This document shows, in pieces, positions 33,001-60,000 of a stretch of 64,000 bases of DNA. The stretch comes from an uncultured Elusimicrobia bacterium (GTDB lineage: Bacteria; Elusimicrobiota; Elusimicrobia; 2-01-FULL-59-12). The number at the start of each line of letters is the position of its first letter. Within the stretch, counting starts at the first letter, position 1. The DNA is taken from the NCBI GenBank assembly GCA_963702895.1, contig OY969767.1, forward strand, positions 2,016,001-2,080,000, read 5' to 3'. A program made the position numbers.

Positions 33001-36000
33001 ACATCCGCTACGGTGAAGAGGTGGTGATCCGGGAAGGGCGTGTCGCCGACGCCGTCCGCGCCTCCACGTCCCTCCCCATTATTTTCAGGCCCTTCCTCCA
33101 CAGAGGGCACTATTTGGTCGATGGCGGTCTCACGAACCCCGTGCCGACGTCCGTGGTCGCCAAGATGGGCGCTGATATTCTGGTTTCGGTAAACCTGACG
33201 GCAAAGCCTTCCGTCCGTCGAGGTCTTGCCAGCGAAAAAAAGATATTCCCCCTTGCCCCACGCTCCCCCGGCATGGCGGAGGTGTTCTTCAAGATGCTCT
33301 ACACCATGCAGTACGAGATCGCTCAAGCCAGGACCGAAATCGCTCATGTGGTGATCGCGCCGGACATGCACGACTTTCTCTGGACGGAATTTCATAGGTC
33401 AGAGGAGATTTCGAAGGTGGGCGAAGCGGCCGCAGAGGAGGCGGTCGCCAAGGTCAAAGCCCACCTGCCTTTCTTCTCGGACTACTGTAAAGTTCCTCTC
33501 GGGATTTCTCTTCGGGCTTACTAACCATAAATCTTCGATTCTACGTACCCCCCCTCTCCCGGCGTAAGACGGGAGAGGGCGGGGGTGAGGGCTAATCGTG
33601 CCCTCATCCTAGCCTTCTCCCGCCTTCGGCGGGAGAAGGAACAATAAAGGACGGGTTTGTCCATCGGTCATAAGGGGAACGACATGCCGGGATGACAGCC
33701 TAAAACCTACTTCGTGTCGGGATGGGTGTCCGGTTCGTTGTGTTTGAGCGCGGCTTTTCGGCGGGCCATTTCTTCATTGGCGGTGCGCCGGAGTCCTGAT
33801 TCCAGCTGTTTGAGGGACGTCCGGAGTGCTTCTTCTTCTCTTCGAAAACGGGCCGAGAGCTCCGCCTCACGCCTGGCCGCTTGCTGTTCCAACTCAAGGC
33901 GCTTGACCTCCAGCGCCCCTTCTTTTGCTTGCAGATCGGCCAAATACTTTTCGCGAAGGGCGGTTTCCTTTTCCTGAAAGAGAGTCTCAAGGGCCTTTTC
34001 TTTTTCGGCGCGCGCTGCCTCGAGACCCTGCAGTTTTTGTTCATACATGGACTGAAGTTCCAGCCGTTCCTGATGGAGCGACCCCAGGCGGGACTGGTAT
34101 TGCGCCTGCCATGTTGATTCGGTTTGCGCGCGCGCCTGCTCCATCTGCTTCCAGGCTTCTTCCTCGCGCGCGCGCCAGAGCGCTTCCAGCTCCTGCCGTT
34201 TGCGATGGAATTCTGTTTGCCATGTTTCTTCTCGCGCCGCTCGCTCCACCTCGGTGCGCTGCAGAGCATCTTTCAATTCTGTCTTCTCTTTAGCCCACTG
34301 CGCTTTGAGCTCCCGAACCTCTCGATCTTTTTCACTTTGAGCGACCTCGAGGGCTTCTTGGAGGGTATGCCTGGACCGCTCTAAGATGGAGATGATCTCC
34401 GACTGGGCCCTGTGCTCAAAGGCGATTTTTTCCTGCTCAAGCCTCTGCACATCGCGCTCTCGGTCATCATGCATCTCTTTGACCCTGGCCAGTTCCGCTT
34501 CCCTGAGCTCGCGCGCCTTTTGCCACTCTTGCAGAAGGGTTTGCAGTTTTGTGATCTGGGCTTGCCACTTCTCATGCTCTTCGGCCGCGATCTCCTGTCG
34601 CAGTTGCGAGGAGAGCTCGGACTTATACTCCTGAAGAAGCGTCTGACTCTCTTGCCAACGGTCGTGGATCTCGGAGAGGCGCTGTTCCATCGTTTCGACG
34701 CGCGCCTTCCAGGCTTTTTCGCGCACGACCAGTTCCTGATTCTCCGATTTGAGGCTGGTCATCATGTCCTGAAGGTTTCGTAAAGACGCGACGGCTCCGC
34801 GCAGGGCGAGCCTTGCCGTATCAAGGTCAGACACGTCGTGAGAAGAGGAGGGCTCTTCGCTAGCGCTCATTAGAAATTTGCGGCGGGACGCAGTTGCCGT
34901 TGGAGGCGGGCCTTCTGCTTCTGCATGACCTTCTCGAACCGATCAATTTCACGCAACACCTTGGAGAGGGGCTCCAGTGTCCTGCCCTGTGCGATGTTAT
35001 GCCATGTTTCGAGCTTGTATTCATCCATCCCAATCAGAATCTCTTCGACCATCGCCAAAAGGGCCGGTGCCAGACCTGGGATCCGCCGCAAGAGAACCGC
35101 GGAGAGACGTCCCACCTCTGAGCCGACCTCCTCCTGCTGGGCGGCGGGACGAGGAACGACCGCTAAATCATGGAAGAGTGCCGCCAAGGCCATGGCATAA
35201 CGGTGCTCGGGTGAGGCACCGGCTTCCTCAGCGCCGGTCAGGGCCATCAAGACCGTCCGCGCGACATGGGCCGGGAGATTCCCGGGCTCCACGGACCTCG
35301 CGAGGTAGCGCGCGAGCACATCATGGCCCTCGGGTAGAAACTCACTCGACTCCTGCAAAAGCGGGCTGACCGATTCCAACACCCCTTCCGGCGCCTGCAG
35401 GGCAGGCGAGTAAAGAAGTTTGGCGACTTCCACCCATCGCTCATAGAGGGAGGCCGCCTTTTGCGTCAAGGGATCGGCAGGGAGCTCCGGCGTGACCACT
35501 TCGAGCGCGACCGCGCTCGGAGGCGGTTCCGGGACGGAGGACGCCGTTGGTTGAGCCGATGGGACTTTCCACAAGCCATCGAGAGGCAAAGGTTCGGAGA
35601 CGATCTTCTTCGACTTTTTGGCGCGCCTCATCACGACACCCAGAAGGGCCACCGCCAGAACGCCTCCGGCCAGAACAGGCCAGCCCTCCACCCGCCGGGG
35701 CCATGTCGGCTTCTGGAACGGACGCGCTAAGGTCCATAAGGATTTGGCTTGTTTCTCTTCCTTCGCCAGCGCCTCTGCGCGGCGGCCGAGGTAGCCCATC
35801 CAGACTTTGGTCTCATTGATCTGACGATCATAAATCGAGAGTTTCTCGGTCAATCGGGTGGATCGGCGCCCTGTTTTTCCAAGCAATTCTTTAATTTGTT
35901 GACCCAACTGAGCGATATCGGTGTGCGTCGGGTAATTTTCAATCAAGAGGTTCCTGCGGGCTTTTAAGGACTCAATTTGGGCGATGAGCTGCGCGTTCGG

Positions 36001-57000: not shown

Positions 57001-60000
57001 AGCCCCTGTCACCCAGAACTGAAACGCGCCGGTGGTGAGCGTGCCGCCGGAGGCAAGAATCCCGCCATTGACCGTCACCGAAGAAGCTAAGGTCCAGGCG
57101 GCGGTCCCTCCCATTTCGATATTCCCTAAGATCGGTGAGGTAAAGGTGGTGCAGGTCTTAGTACCGCTGCCAGTCATACGGAGGTTGTAATATTGAGCGT
57201 TCTTGCACGTTTGGTTGCCGCCCAGGGCATAGTTCACCGTGTTGGAACTGGCGGAGAAATTGACGGTGGTCACCGCCATGGCGTTGGTCGTGGCGCCGCT
57301 GGCGTTCAGGACAGAATCCAACCCTTGCGTCCAAGACCCGCCGCCGGTCAAGGTGCTCGAGGCGTTGACCGTGCCGTTGTTCGTCACAGACCCCGTCACC
57401 GTGAAGACGCCCGGGGTCGTGAGCGTCCCGTTGTTGGTGAGCGTGATGCCGGCTGCTACGGTGAGCGTCGTGATGCTCATGGTACCGCTGAGCGCTTGGT
57501 TGTTCGTGTTGAAGGTGGCCGTACCAGTGATGGCGACGCTTCCGGAAGTCCGGGTGAGGCCGCCCCGAAAGACGATCGCTGTGCTGGCGCCGCTCAATGT
57601 GCCGCCGCTCACCGTGACCAGTCCCGCGAAGAGTTTTGAGCCTGTGTCGCTGGTGAGCGATACCGTTCCCCCTGAGAGCGTCGAAGCCCCTGTCACCCAG
57701 AACTGAAACGCGCCGGTGGTGAGCGTGCCGCCGGAGGCAAGAATCCCGCCATTGACCGTCACCGAAGAAGCTAAGGTCCAGGCGGCGGTCCCTCCCATTT
57801 CGATATTCCCTAAGATCGGTGAGGTAAAGGTGGTGCAGGTCTTAGTACCGCTGCCAGTCATACGGAGGTTGTAATATTGAGCGTTCTTGCACGTTTGGTT
57901 GCCGCCCAGGGCATAGTTCACCGTGTTGGAACTGGCGGAGAAATTGACGGTGGTCACCGCCATGGCGTTGGTCGTGGCGCCGCTGGCGTTCAGGACAGAA
58001 TCCAACCCTTGCGTCCAAGACCCGCCGCCGGTCAAGGTGCTCGAGGCGTTGACCGTGCCGTTGTTCGTCACAGACCCCGTCACCGTGAAGACGCCCGGGG
58101 TCGTGAGCGTCCCGTTGTTGGTGAGCGTGATGCCGGCTGCTACGGTGAGCGTCGTGATGCTCATGGTACCGCTGAGCGCTTGGTTGTTCGTGTTGAAGGT
58201 CGCCGTGCCGGTGATCGACACGCTCCCCGAAGTCCGGGTGAGGCCGCCCCGAAAGACGATCGCTGTGCTGGCGCCGCTCAGCGTCCCTCCACTCACTGTA
58301 ACCAAGCCGACCATGACTTTCGACCCTGTGTCGCTGGTGAGCGATACCGTTCCCCCTGAGAGCGTCGAAGCCCCTGTCACCCAGAACTGAAACGCGCCGG
58401 TGGTGAGCGTGCCGCCGGAGGCAAGAATCCCGCCATTGACCGTCACCGAAGAAGCTAAGGTCCAGGCGGCGGTCCCTCCCATTTCGATATTCCCTAAGAT
58501 CGGTGAGGTAAAGGTGGTGCAGGTCTTAGTACCGCTGCCAGTCATACGGAGGTTGTAATACTGAGCGTTCTTGCACGTTTGGTTGCCGCCCAGGGCATAG
58601 TTCACCGTGTTGGAACTGGCGGAGAAATTGACGGTGGTCACCGCCATGGCGTTGGTCGTGGCGCCGCTGGCGTTCAAAATGGAATTGGCTCCTTGGTTCC
58701 ACGTGCCAGCTCCCGTCAGTGTCCCCAGGGTTGACGCGGTGCCGTTATTGGTCATAGTGCCGGTCACGGTCATGGTGCCGGCCACCGAGATCGTCCCGTT
58801 ATTCGTCACCGTCCCAGCCGATATCGTAAGCGCTCCCGCAAAAGAGAGGTTCGCCGTGCCCTGAATGGTTTTGTTGTTGGTTAAGGTGGTCAGGCCGGTG
58901 AGGGTGTTGGATCCAGTTCCGTCAATCGTCGTCCCGGCGCCCGTGAGCGTGAGGGCACCGCCACCGCTGTTGGTGCCGTTGTTGGTGTAATTGCCGGTGC
59001 CTGTCAGAGTGAATGTGTTATTGATGGTGAGTATCCCCCCATTGTTAATGGTGATCGCTGTAACAGCTTGAGCGGGGGTGGCGGTCACCGTGACGGTATG
59101 GCCATTGGCAACGGTCATACTGTCGGCCGTTCCGGGAAAATCAACTCCTTGCGTGCAGGCCGCCGCGCAGGCGCCGCCCCACGTCGTGCCGATATTGAAA
59201 TTCCCGGACTGCGATGAAGTGAAAGCGGCTGCCTGGGCGGGAGTCTGCATGAGAAAAAATGCAGCCGCACTAGCACCGCAAAGGAGCGCTAATCTTTGAA
59301 TCCGTAACATCGATCAAGCCTAGGGGGAATTGATCGATATTTCAATCACTTTTTAAGTTTTTTGAGATGTGGGACGCGATGAATTTCAGTGGCTGATTTT
59401 ATGAAGCGATGCCGCCGACTACGACACCCTTGGGAATGCGCAGCGTAGGGAGTCCATCGGACACGGGGGCGCCCTGGCCATCTTTGCCGCAGGTTCCTAC
59501 AGACCAGCCCATATCGGAACCCACGAGATCAATGGCTTTGAGCACATCCGGGCCGTTGCCGAGGAGATTGGCGGATCGGATGAGCGGACCCGCCTTCCCG
59601 TCTTTGATCAAAAATCCTTCTTCCACTTCAAAAACAAAATCGCCGGTCGCGGGCTCCACCTGCCCGCCGCCCATCTTGGTCACGAGAAGCCCATTCTCGA
59701 CGGAGCGTAAGATCATGGCGGGATCATCTGGCCCTGAGGCGACAAAGGTATTGGCCATGCGCGGAATGGGCCGATGACGGTACGACTCGCGCCTTCCGTG
59801 ACCGTTGGAAGCAACGCCGTCCTTTTTTGATGTTTGCCTGTCGTAAATGTAGGTCTTAAGCACCCCGTGATCGACGAGAACAGAGCGTTGCGAGGGAGTT
59901 CCTTCGTCATCAAAAGCGTAAAAGCCGCGCTGGCCAGGCATCGTGGGATCTTCGAGGACGCTCACCTTTTCGTTTCCGATCACCTTTCCGACGGCGCCCC

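Follow-up and report, generated by a model that had tools for sequence, protein, structure and literature searches.

What do six tandem secreted Ig-like proteins, and a neighbouring giant protein that ends in one more such body, build? The question was posed by a gene cluster of an uncultured Elusimicrobiota bacterium, which was analysed within a window of 64,000 nt (the whole stretch of DNA presented here). The cluster most likely encodes a surface fibre whose parts are joined via a donated protein strand. The six proteins had previously been read as pilins and the giant as their tip. The gene positions, the six paralogues and the subunit-like body at the C-terminus of the giant were confirmed by ORFs and alignment; all genes of the locus lie on the minus strand (Table 1).

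Table 1. Features of the locus; positions are counted along the window.
Feature	Position	Strand	Evidence
Two downstream genes: 647-aa membrane/coiled-coil protein and 387-aa coiled-coil protein	33707..36813	-	No family
770-aa outer-membrane protein, PorV/PorQ-like barrel (residues 43-335) with long linker-plus-helical C-terminal half	36859..39171	-	NCBIfam, gene order
647-aa base/anchor candidate	39168..41111	-	Pfam, NCBIfam TIGR04183, N-terminal motif
Mature N-terminus of base candidate, residues 48-61, A-S-F-V-D-A-S-L-S-V-R-P-F-A	40929..40970	-	Subunit-type strand motif
Subunit copy 6 (transcription order), 186 aa, divergent, N-terminal strand as in others	41263..41823	-	ORF, alignment
Subunit copy 5, 188 aa, protein identical to copy 4	41892..42458	-	ORF, alignment, conservation, AF2
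Proposed donor strand of subunit copy 5, residues 27-40	42339-42380	-	Conservation, AF2
Subunit copy 4, 188 aa	42646..43212	-	ORF, alignment, profile
Subunit copy 3, 188 aa	43400..43966	-	ORF, alignment, profile
Subunit copy 2, 188 aa	44154..44720	-	ORF, alignment, profile
Subunit copy 1, 187 aa	44853..45416	-	ORF, alignment, profile
431-aa chaperone candidate: Rrf2-like winged helix (residues 1-83), membrane helix, two periplasmic PapD-like domains (from 148)	45432..46727	-	
Structured leader between ANTAR gene and PapD-like/subunit genes, candidate attenuator	46728..46929	-	MFE
Response regulator with ANTAR RNA-binding output domain	46930..47574	-	Pfam Response_reg 6.3e-22, ANTAR 4.5e-20
One-domain PapD-like protein, ends SRLRFTIEK	47621..48097	-	Profile, blastp against relatives
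C-terminal acceptor body of giant, last 150 residues, without TITVTP strand, extends to C-terminus	48097..48546	-	Alignment, profiles
3,738-aa secreted giant, tip candidate	48094..59310	-	ORF, repeat marker positions, C-terminal body

Subunits, chaperone candidates and leader

The six subunit paralogues are 63-100% identical in protein sequence, with the copy at 41263-41823 sharing 63-64% with the other five. The DNA of the five copies at 41892-45416 is 98-100% mutually identical over a 300-nt reference copy, at spacings of 754, 754, 754 and 699 nt. Each protein consists of a signal peptide followed by A-N-P-V-D-G-T-I-T-V-T-P-V-A and an Ig-like body. The earlier finding of 73 homologues (122-218 aa) without a precomputed Pfam domain was reproduced; a Pfam scan of 105 family members gave no consistent family, and the only NCBIfam match, to choice-of-anchor-D, was sub-threshold (19.7-23.6 bits against a cutoff of 45). 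The most conserved 14-residue windows of the closer family (52 sequences) begin at mature residues 5-7, within the N-terminal stretch, and mature T9, T11 and P12 are invariant there; in 105 divergent sequences V10 is kept at 95%, T11 at 84% and P12 at 82%. Of four residues reported earlier as invariant, T35, T37 and P38 proved so in the 52 sequences, whereas D31 was found at 87%.

An AF2 model of the subunit monomer, calculated from a 105-sequence alignment, reached a pLDDT of 96.5 and a pTM of 0.88, better than the earlier model. The N-terminal stretch, described before as lacking secondary structure, again had none over mature residues 1-17, and no strand partner in cis was present for it. 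The previous fold matches were recovered with VIA (6fvi, Z 8.1; 9bac, 7.7; 9ikk, 7.3 with 142 residues aligned; 7ueg, 6.7; 8aur, 6.6; 9p0a, 6.5; 9h8b, 6.5). Donor-strand filament subunits occupied nine of the ten best Foldseek rows (TasA, Hyper2, TLP-1a/b, cannula, bundling pilus, thread, CS20 and the FimH pilin domain). Both sets of matches are weak (best Foldseek E 2.3e-3, none ≤1e-3; best VIA Z 8.1, a single row of at least 8), and non-polymerizing ASH/MSP domains score level with the filament subunits.

The earlier statement that the locus has no chaperone-usher family stands for the usher, which was searched for and not found, and for Pfam PapD_N, but not for the two Ig-like neighbours, which were assigned by VIA, Foldseek and profile searches to a two-domain and a one-domain PapD-like chaperone fold. 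Because both have this fold, the fibre system is probably chaperone-assisted. The model of the 431-aa protein (AF2 pLDDT 82.9) matched WxLIP (9i1y, Z 12.1), YadV (10.9), CfaA (9.8), CsuC (9.5) and FimC (8.9) in VIA and Caf1M (5e-9), FimC (7.7e-9) and CsuC (2.9e-8) in Foldseek. Its 35 homologues (36-100% identity) are mostly of ∼308 aa with a signal peptide; a helix-turn-helix part is present in three of the two-domain proteins, namely that of the window (Pfam Rrf2, 2.8e-4) and two others with Pfam Rrf2. The one-domain protein is paralogous to the first domain of the two-domain protein (two-domain family profile, E 6e-19, positions 14-160). Its likely start is an ATG at 48097 that overlaps the stop codon of the giant (ATGA), the mechanical ORF start being 48178. 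Profile-profile comparison of the subunit family with the PapD-like family gave no relation. The proposed task of both PapD-like proteins is to hold bodies in the periplasm until assembly; the two-domain protein would serve the subunits and the one-domain protein, translationally coupled to the giant, the tip. No outer-membrane pore that would let folded Ig domains pass was identified for the presumed export, the sole candidate seen being a divergent, sub-threshold SprA-like protein.

The ANTAR regulator has an orthologue at the corresponding place in a related locus (L002). The leader consists of a hairpin followed by a long hairpin and a U-run (MFE -78.1 kcal/mol, z -4.17; 0 of 200 shuffles equally good); the same layout is repeated in L002 (z -5.02), and a comparison with Rfam returned no family. 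Read-through of this leader into the chaperone and subunit genes is probably controlled by the regulator. The two genes at the downstream end encode proteins without a Pfam or NCBIfam family. Among related loci L001-L004 the membrane/coiled-coil protein has a relative in L001 only, and the 387-aa protein has relatives in L001 and, in L002, in the initial part of a larger protein; it is doubtful that these two proteins belong to the system.

Tip and base candidates

The giant is composed of internal repeats that are near-identical, with a 228-aa unit occurring five times before three super-units of ∼725-770 aa and the terminal body; Pfam matches were weak ones only. That this C-terminus is one more subunit-like body was borne out (about 145-150 residues, 29% identity). 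The subunit-family profile matched it with an E of 6.5e-18 at profile positions 41-183, so that the N-terminal extension falls outside the match, and a further profile match gave 1.3e-14. Besides the giant and its counterpart in L002, the body was found in nine long proteins of the representative library. Tip candidates are large proteins with varied N-terminal parts and the body at the C-terminus; among long proteins of the module-survey loci that match the body, it ended ≤8 residues from the C-terminus in 20 of 20. Homology began at profile positions 39-43, with nothing aligning to the strand, in six of ten aligned body-ended proteins. In the other four the profile alignment continued into the Fn3 domain in front of the body, whose last strand is extension-like, so that the absence of a donor strand is clean in only 6/10. 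The subunit strand motif scored higher in the base than in the region upstream of the tip body (14 of 14 loci).

In the base candidate a signal peptide is followed by a donor-type strand, Fn3-like domains, a β-sandwich and a T9SS type-A C-terminal domain (CTD), and the acceptor body is absent. It matched Pfam FlgD_ig (1.5e-8, over the cutoff) and fn3, and NCBIfam TIGR04183 with 27.1 bits against a cutoff of 23. A degenerate 10-residue strand pattern, compared with the genome in six frames (2.96 million residues), had seven matches: the six subunits and the base candidate. The motif D-x-x-L-S/T-V-R-P or a close variant is present in ten of 11 base homologues with an N-terminus (the window's own included; a 12th is truncated).

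The barrel protein matched NCBIfam PorV_fam at 1.7e-12 (47.6 bits, under the cutoff of 90). The start of its gene overlaps the end of the CTD gene by 4 nt; a barrel gene lies behind a CTD-bearing gene in each of the 18 loci where both occur, directly behind the Fn3/CTD gene in 15/18, with a 4-nt overlap in nine. The identities given earlier for the barrel, the T9SS-CTD protein and the ANTAR regulator were upheld by Pfam and NCBIfam. The CTD protein reads as a base or anchor and the barrel as its partner, which takes these neighbour roles beyond pure guesses.

Distribution, co-variation and alternative readings

Of 301 genomes sampled from the phylum, 48 carry the body domain and 67 the PapD-like protein; 47 of the 48 body-bearing genomes hold both. 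A five-part module recurs across the phylum, the full set being present in 13 of the 25 sources examined and most others being incomplete at sequence ends; these loci were selected for holding the body domain. Most related loci contain only 1-3 subunit genes, and many genomes show at E ≤ 1e-5 the long C-terminal-body protein only. Such counts would suit a surface display complex in place of a long fibre, with body-ended cargo clipped by strand complementation onto a CTD-anchored Fn3 stalk, either directly or with a small adaptor subunit, or a few of them, in between; the six copies would then be recently amplified and form no long polymer. The cargo parts, read by eye from the sequences, are highly varied (Fn3 arrays, a glycoside hydrolase-like part, β-propeller-like repeats), as this arrangement would also allow. 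We nevertheless hold it to be unlikely: a single gene may supply thousands of subunits, as one gene can in chaperone-usher pili; a subunit that combines a donor strand with an acceptor body can by construction self-polymerize; a stand-alone subunit was found at E ≤ 1e-4 in nearly all loci with complete ends; and six near-identical copies fit the demand for a very abundant product.

Across 18 divergent loci the N-terminus of the base changes along with the motif that the cognate subunit has in each lineage, with A-N-W-G-D-S-F-T-V-T paired with A-S-W-G-D-S-F-N-I-T, A-S-K-N-I-A-I-H-V-R with A-T-K-S-I-E-I-H-V-R and T-E-D-L-I-L with T-E-D-L-V-L. In an unsupervised best-10-mer comparison of the 18 loci the cognate mean was 28.6 against 23.2 for non-cognate pairs, a value reached by 0 of 20,000 permutations in a test that counts related loci as independent; the best window lay elsewhere than at the mature N-terminus in 7/18 loci. 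Recent gene conversion is excluded as the cause of the likeness because the same codon is used at only 32 of the 61 identical residues.

The peptide common to subunit and base might just as well act as a signal for sorting or processing, and a common recognizer co-evolving with it would likewise produce the co-variation. The small proteins might then be monomeric secreted or periplasmic Ig-like proteins of the ASH/choice-of-anchor-D type, with an N-terminal signal for sorting, processing or chaperone recognition; the best VIA match is indeed to the non-polymerizing ASH domain 6fvi, MSP/HYDIN domains follow at Z 6.5-7.8 and the choice-of-anchor-D match, although weak, points the same way. Several observations make this quite unlikely. 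The peptide shifts between lineages with its strand-like alternation kept, whereas a sorting signal is as a rule conserved from lineage to lineage; the very proteins in which a C-terminal body follows other domains lack it; and it is unpaired in cis in the high-confidence AF2 model. Nor would monomers give a reason for the polarity of acceptor-only, donor-plus-acceptor and donor-only proteins.

A tube, sheath or two-dimensional lattice formed by strand donation, like archaeal cannulae, Hyper2 tubes and TLP-1 tubules, in place of a thin tip-shaft-base pilus, is very improbable: the matches over the whole model including its N-terminus are to such tube formers (Hyper2 9bac, 130 residues aligned; TLP-1b 9ikk; cannula 9h8b), but all Z values lie in the range where common arrangement alone may explain a match, and single acceptor-only and donor-only partners are more in keeping with a linear polar fibre than with a lattice. 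TLP-1 forms a hollow helix with an n+4 donor (PMC11494351).

A proposed fibre with tip, shaft and base

A surface fibre assembled through exchange of donor strands and polarized into tip, shaft and base is regarded as the probable reading of the locus as a whole, with some reserve. The proposal in the earlier note of donor-strand subunits with an acceptor-only giant tip has gained independent comparative support from a donor-only base candidate whose N-terminus co-varies with that of the subunits, from the body-ended tip-like proteins and from the conserved five-part module; strand exchange itself we infer. No paper was found that describes the combination of a strand-exchange fibre, a giant tip and a base linked to a barrel of the outer membrane. 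The shaft, a polymer of presumed length, would be formed by the six 186-188 aa proteins, the N-terminal strand of each being donated to the Ig-like acceptor body of another. The 3,738-aa giant would be the tip, restricted to the distal end because its acceptor body comes without a donor strand. The Fn3 protein, with a donor strand at its start and no acceptor body, could for that reason cap the proximal end only, stopping growth. The fibre would be anchored through the T9SS-type C-terminal domain of this protein, with the PorV-like barrel from the overlapping gene as its binding partner.

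Organization of the locus and the shaft subunits

Judged from sequence features and predicted models, donor-strand exchange among the secreted subunits is fairly probably the best explanation of the locus. Every gene in the stretch that carries the locus lies on the minus strand of the window; open reading frames on the opposite strand (e.g. 45345–46661, +) were set aside as shadows of minus-strand genes. Upstream of the giant (the 3738-residue tip candidate) are genes for a TldD-type metalloprotease (PmbA_TldD_3rd, 7.4e-65), a GAF-domain histidine kinase that possibly pairs with the ANTAR regulator, and a protein that has a FecR domain and weakly resembles Leptospira surface lipoproteins. 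A tmRNA gene and a tRNA gene, both upstream of the locus, were the only Rfam matches in the entire window, with none inside the locus. No RNA run was listed among the public sequencing runs and the DNA runs shared at most 0.15 of words with this DNA.

Features of the locus and related sites (window positions unless stated otherwise)
Feature	Position	Strand	Remarks
Giant, 3738 aa, secreted	59310–48094	minus	First in transcription order
One-domain Ig-like (PapD-like) protein	Probable ATG 48097	minus	ATGA overlap with the stop codon of the giant
ANTAR response regulator	47574–46930	minus	Response_reg 6.3e-22, ANTAR 4.5e-20 (Pfam)
Gap between ANTAR and PapD-like genes, 202 nt	46728–46929	minus	Hairpin, long hairpin, then U-run
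Leader in locus L002 (also with ANTAR gene)	L002 2389–2644	plus	Same hairpin layout
PapD-like protein, 431 aa	46727–45432	minus	3′ of the ANTAR gene in transcription order
Six tandem subunit genes, 186–188 aa	45416–41263	minus	After the 431-aa gene
187-nt spacers between amplified subunit genes	43967–44153, 43213–43399, 42459–42645	minus	Belong to the 754-nt repeat
Fn3 protein, 647 aa, T9SS type-A C-terminal domain	41111–39168	minus	TIGR04183 27.1 bits (cut-off 23), residues 561–645
PorV/PorQ-like barrel protein, 770 aa	39171–36859	minus	4-nt overlap with the Fn3/CTD gene; NF033709 47.6 bits, below cut-off of 90
Two proteins without family match		minus	Last in order; coiled-coil look judged by eye from sequence
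Metalloprotease, histidine kinase and FecR-domain genes	59399–63634	minus	Upstream of the giant
tmRNA gene	18607–18975	plus	Rfam, 133.5 bits
tRNA gene	26521–26594	minus	Rfam
Cluster of 13 large CTD proteins (T9SS type A)	Own contig (C1) about 2,185,000–2,232,000		Outside the window
Further sites of T9SS-type parts	C1 276 kb, 725 kb, 1,770 kb, 1,935 kb		Outside the window
SprA-like protein, 1813 aa	Own genome about 1,187,700–1,191,000		Outside the window

The 202 nt that separate the ANTAR gene from the PapD-like gene fold far better than shuffled versions (z = −4.17) and have AAGAA in both apical loops; the corresponding leader of L002, a related locus, gave z = −5.02. The layout fits anti-termination control and the leader could be an ANTAR-controlled attenuator. 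No Rfam family was matched by its hairpins.

The mutual identity of 63–100% that the earlier note had given for the six small proteins was reproduced. Over a 300-nt reference copy the DNA of the five upstream copies is 98–100% identical, with a spacing of 754 or 699 nt, which points to recent amplification. Repeats in 41000–59400 were taken from a repeat search and marker motifs, their periods exceeding the limit of 500 of Tandem Repeats Finder. One of the 187-nt spacers folds better than 200 of 200 shuffles (z = −2.67); by analogy with major pilin transcripts, the spacers may be elements of mRNA processing or stabilization. A consensus terminator scan of the minus strand between the subunit genes found none.

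In the 2.72 Mb genome the family occurs at this locus only, as the six genes and the C-terminus of the giant, and all relatives come from Elusimicrobiota MAGs. The 73 homologues of 122–218 aa reported earlier as devoid of any Pfam domain were confirmed as such, and an exhaustive library search with the subunit family gave 178 clusters at E ≤ 1e-3. Pfam searches with 105 family members returned scattered weak Ig-like matches and no consistent family. The subunits scored 19.7–23.6 bits against the choice-of-anchor D/ASH model NF012200, below its cut-off of 45, over residues 33–126 or shorter. The signal peptides end in A-Q-A/A-N-P or A-R-A/S-N-P and contain no cysteine.

An AF2 model calculated from 105 alignment rows reached a pLDDT of 96.5 and a pTM of 0.88. 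Mature residues 1–17 were again without secondary structure, at high confidence, in agreement with the earlier model; the N-terminal extension is conserved, and in this single-chain model it is unpaired. The invariance claimed for T35, T37 and P38 holds in 52 sequences. The fold matches listed in the earlier note were recovered and are still weak: Foldseek gave no row at E ≤ 1e-3, yet nine of the ten top rows were subunits of strand-donation filaments. With VIA the best matches were 6fvi (Z = 8.1), the Hyper2 tube (7.7), TLP-1b (7.3, 142 residues aligned), the bundling pilus (6.7), TasA (6.6), Tafi (6.5) and the cannula (6.5), with ASH/MSP domains interleaved among the filament matches; pilins reached only Z = 5.8–6.8. 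TasA (8aur) was matched at 2.3e-3 by Foldseek; at the family level the reported lack of TasA stands, Peptidase_M73 being matched by one of the 105 members only (E = 0.021). The alignment profile had no match at E ≤ 10 among the sequences of solved structures.

Tip and base candidates

The body at the end of the giant aligns with the subunit profile from position 41. Nine longer proteins (302–1714 aa) that match the body were found in the library search, and in eight of them the body stands last, at the very C-terminus, preceded by Fn3 arrays and other parts; by eye, one such part resembles a glycoside hydrolase and one a propeller repeat. The ninth (P0113) was left out, as it looks like a subunit with a mis-called start. 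These eight proteins, the giant and the corresponding protein of L002 were aligned to the profile as ten fused forms. Homology starts at profile positions 39–43 in six of the ten, the giant included; these six join a payload to a pilin-type body without the extension, as a tip adhesin does. In the other four the homology reaches further towards the N-terminus, to an extension-like strand that closes the preceding Fn3 domain. That strand (S-N-x-A-T-x-T-V-T) resembles the donor strand of the subunits in the library proteins P0197, P0199 and P0171 and in the L002 protein (3–1187); these sequences give hints that the free donor extension may have been derived from such an Fn3 strand. Among the fetched loci the body ends at most eight residues from the C-terminus in all 20 long proteins with a body match. 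For the first repeats of the giant the best named lead in the ESM Atlas was the G8 domain (0.85, below the level that counts).

The 647-residue Fn3/CTD protein, the base candidate, begins directly behind its signal peptide with A-S-F-V-D-A-S-L-S-V-R-P-F-A, to be compared with A-N-P-V-D-G-T-I-T-V-T-P-V-A in the subunits, and continues with Fn3 domains where the subunits have the body. The motif or a close variant was found in ten of 11 Fn3/CTD homologues (the 12 closest including that of the window, one of which lacks its N-terminus). A degenerate ten-residue pattern had seven sites in 2.96 million six-frame residues of the genome, namely the six subunits and the Fn3/CTD protein (chance expectation of about 0.4 matches, estimated from residue frequencies); since the pattern was drawn after both proteins had been seen, this count speaks for specificity and not for discovery. 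In the genome search the type-A C-terminal sorting domain of the base candidate scored 29.7 bits with TIGR04183, and Pfam FlgD_ig gave 34.9 (cut-off 27).

The N-termini of subunit and Fn3/CTD protein were compared locus by locus in 20 further loci from the phylum sample. The peptide varies widely among lineages, and the two proteins of one locus match each other: A-N-W-G-D-S-F-T-V-T/A-S-W-G-D-S-F-N-I-T, S-D-T-F-Q-I-T-F-T-P/G-D-S-F-S-I-T-F-T-P, A-S-K-N-I-A-I-H-V-R/A-T-K-S-I-E-I-H-V-R and A-A-T-E-D-L-I-L/A-L-T-E-D-L-V-L are such cognate pairs. The best ungapped 10-mer between the first 110 residues, taken without manual alignment, was used as a score. For 18 loci the cognate mean was 28.6 and the non-cognate mean 23.2, a result reached by none of 20 000 permutations of these (related) loci; the best window lay off the mature N-terminus in seven of the 18. 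Recent gene conversion would also give common N-termini; it was discarded, as the same codon is used for just 32 of 61 identical residues in eight clear subunit–base pairs, and the likeness is therefore kept at the protein level. A common lineage-specific constraint is expected if both peptides have to fit the same groove. The cognate motif also scored higher on the N-terminus of the base than around the start of the tip body in 14 of 14 loci, with a margin of at least 7 in eight of them, the windows being unequal (120 residues for the base, 80 for the tip).

PapD-like partners, export and distribution

The 431-residue PapD-like protein has 35 homologues with 51–100% identity, apart from one outlier at 36%, and most are of about 308 aa with a signal peptide. 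Its residues 1–147 form an Rrf2-like winged helix and a membrane helix fused to the PapD-like part; this N-terminal arrangement was seen in three homologues, that of the window and two with a Pfam Rrf2 match. If a chaperone tethered to the membrane could bind DNA as well, it would make for an unusual feedback device. AF2 predicted two β-sandwich domains for the periplasmic part (pLDDT 82.9). The best single-domain match of the PapD-like part in VIA was the WxL-interacting protein 9i1y (Z = 12.1, r.m.s.d. 3.5, 125 residues aligned), followed by many chaperone-usher chaperones at Z = 8.4–10.9 (YadV 10.9, CfaA 9.8, CsuC 9.5, FimC 8.9). Foldseek aligned both domains with Caf1M (5e-9), FimC (7.7e-9), SafB (1.4e-8) and CsuC (2.9e-8); ElrE, the proven Elr chaperone, is weaker against the same chaperones (9e-7 to 1e-4), as reported by Sleutel et al. 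(10.64898/2026.10.17.759780). ASH-domain ciliary proteins outrank the chaperones (Foldseek 1e-12), so that the PapD-like fold alone is no proof of a chaperone. Domain 1 of the two-domain protein has a paralogue in the one-domain protein encoded behind the giant, and the two proteins have the closing strand S-R-L-R-F in common. An hhalign comparison of the subunit and PapD-like families gave a probability of 3.8%, i.e. no relation.

The locus had been described as free of chaperone and usher families. For the chaperone this is true of sequence families, PapD_N being absent from the genome and from 33 members of the PapD-like family (scattered weak Ig-like matches to 20 families only), and fails at the level of the fold, where two PapD-like proteins are present. 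The usher is indeed missing: PF00577 had no match among 14 locus proteins or in the 98%-complete single-contig genome, with a positive Escherichia coli control.

The barrel protein matches NF033709 with E = 1.7e-12 over model positions 10–326. Nine other barrels of the genome exceed the cut-off of this model. Altogether, the genome has 19 type-A C-terminal domains and about 12 PorV-like barrels, five of which lie no more than about 3 kb from a CTD gene. Residues 345–770 (approximately) of the barrel protein are a 430-residue half with Pro/Lys-rich linkers and a helical domain without a family, and full-length relatives vary from 512 to 770 aa. In seven related loci (L012–L015, L018, L020 and L024) an extra small open reading frame (121–187 aa), little but a T9SS-type C-terminal domain, adjoins the PorV-like gene. 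SprA was represented by four sub-threshold pieces in one 1813-residue frame (best 63 bits, cut-off 200). PorU was not found in the genome, the matches covering the C-terminal domain only, and GldL had no match in the genome, but the control likewise matched nowhere. Speculatively, the secretion signal of the base might bring about the export of a chain that had been linked in the periplasm.

Of 301 sampled genomes of the phylum, kin among which are not independent, 48 have the body domain and 67 the PapD-like protein. Both occurred together in 47 of the 48 body genomes; among the 253 genomes that lack a body, 20 have the PapD-like protein. Two large families are almost devoid of either (body in 0 of 88 and 0 of 89; PapD-like protein in 0 of 88 and 1 of 89). 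With four profiles all five parts (tip-like protein, PapD-like protein, stand-alone subunit, Fn3/CTD protein and PorV-like barrel) were detected in 13 of 25 sources, which had been chosen for having the body; most of the incomplete ones are cut by the end of the contig or of the fetched stretch. In each of the 18 loci that have the two genes, that of the barrel comes after one with a CTD: 15 have it immediately downstream of the Fn3/CTD gene (nine with a 4-nt overlap), and three have it behind the small extra CTD frame.

Proposed fibre and its relation to known systems

The giant and other cargo proteins would be acceptors only, the subunits donors and acceptors, and the Fn3/CTD protein a donor only. 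With N-terminal donors an acceptor-only protein is expected to be distal, and a donor-only protein proximal, ending growth. The donor-only protein is also the one with the envelope-anchoring signal, and for these two reasons we read the locus as encoding a tip–shaft–base fibre. The PapD-like proteins would keep the bodies competent for assembly in the periplasm. This polarity and the chaperone role are inferred from sequence anatomy. The donor-strand reading gains support from the donor-only base candidate, from the co-variation of the N-termini and from the PapD-like partners.

In logic the closest known system is the Elr/WxL pilus of Enterococcus faecalis, in parts the chaperone-usher pili and in fold ranking the chaperone-free filaments. 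In the Elr/WxL pilus (bioRxiv 10.64898/2026.10.17.759780) the subunits combine an exposed N-terminal strand with an incomplete β-sandwich, as proposed for those here, and a chaperone of PapD-like fold is membrane-tied, like the chaperone candidate of the locus; an usher is missing from both. That pilus is reported as confined to Bacillota. Here, however, the candidate anchor ends in a T9SS-type domain and would pair with a PorV-like barrel, in place of LPxTG and sortase; the tether of the PapD-like proteins that have one sits at the N-terminus together with a winged helix; and the host is probably double-membraned, unlike those of Elr/WxL pili. Among the Pfam-named clusters of the ESM Atlas, a WxL cluster came closest to the subunit (0.82, below the level that counts and a lead only). 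WxL (PF13731) was not among the 25 commonest of 70 families matched by the 105 subunits at E ≤ 1, one subunit matched WxLIP_PGBD (DUF916; E = 0.017), and WxLIP_PGBD (PF06030) and DUF3324 (PF11797) were absent from the 20 families matched by the 33 PapD-like proteins.

With the chaperone-usher pili (type 1, P, Caf1, Csu and CFA/I) the locus, as read here, shares the logic of the N-terminal donor strand, a two-domain PapD-like partner, a body always at the free C-terminus and, as in FimH and PapG, a pilin domain without extension in the tip candidates. It differs from them in having no usher and no PapD_N Pfam match, and in a terminator or anchor that would be no usher-held pilin but an Fn3 protein with a donor strand only and a C-terminal domain of the secretion type. 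TasA, the archaeal bundling pili, threads, cannulae, Tafi and TLP-1a/b are the best-ranked structural neighbours that span the whole subunit including its N-terminal stretch, but the similarity is weak (Z = 6.5–7.7, E = 2e-3 to 5e-2), and these filaments have no PapD-like partner, CTD anchor or acceptor-only tip fusion. TLP-1 of pond fibrils is, like the subunits here, an orphan secreted family; its N-terminus is disordered in AF2 models and turns into the donor strand (PMC11494351).

The type V pili of Bacteroidota (FimA/Mfa1, with the anchors FimB/Mfa2) are usher-less strand-exchange fibres from a T9SS lineage with an anchor or terminator subunit and tip proteins. Type V pilins are lipoprotein precursors that are trimmed by a protease. 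In contrast, the subunits here have an ordinary A-Q-A signal site without a cysteine and the candidate anchor has a T9SS C-terminal domain; neither the locus proteins nor the 105 subunits gave a FimA-family Pfam match. As with T9SS cargo and PorV of Bacteroidota, a type-A C-terminal domain above its cut-off is accompanied by a PorV/PorQ-like barrel from an overlapping gene. The phylum, however, is outside the FCB group, PorU was not found and SprA is below threshold, and the barrel differs from PorV in scoring below the family cut-off and in its extra 430-residue C-terminal half. We know of no T9SS cargo that begins with a donor strand. None of the papers listed by the literature searches gives an account of such a system, judged by title and abstract, and no paper in the library searched names both Elusimicrobia and a donor strand.

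Donor-strand exchange is the best understood route to non-covalent protein fibres and in double-membraned bacteria has been linked to the usher pore. Tentatively, and with somewhat less than even confidence in the whole combination, the locus may represent one more class of donor-strand fibre, not described so far, that is chaperone-assisted and usher-less and belongs to bacteria with two membranes. In this combination the donor-only stalk would end growth and fasten the fibre, its T9SS-type domain docking on a PorV-like barrel of its own; a chain linked beforehand might even exit through an SprA-like pore, riding on the one secretion signal of the stalk; ancestry may be shared with the WxL/DUF916 pili of Bacillota; and the exchangeable tips would make the fibre a general display device of free-living Elusimicrobiota. 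The tips do vary, from the 3738-residue repeat protein here to Fn3 arrays and, judged by eye, glycoside hydrolase- or propeller-like parts elsewhere.

If this is true, the module keeps the subunit logic and the PapD-like partner while the usher and anchor are replaced by a type-IX-style tail and a barrel. The mechanism would then be portable between envelope machines, and the fibre could serve to test how proteins that are folded and joined beforehand pass the outer membrane. The co-varying N-terminal peptides would amount to a simple specificity code that can be tested. If the Gram-positive WxL pilus is truly linked to the fibre, this would bear on the age of such fibres, and several orphan families in about one sixth to one fifth of the sampled Elusimicrobiota genomes would gain a function.
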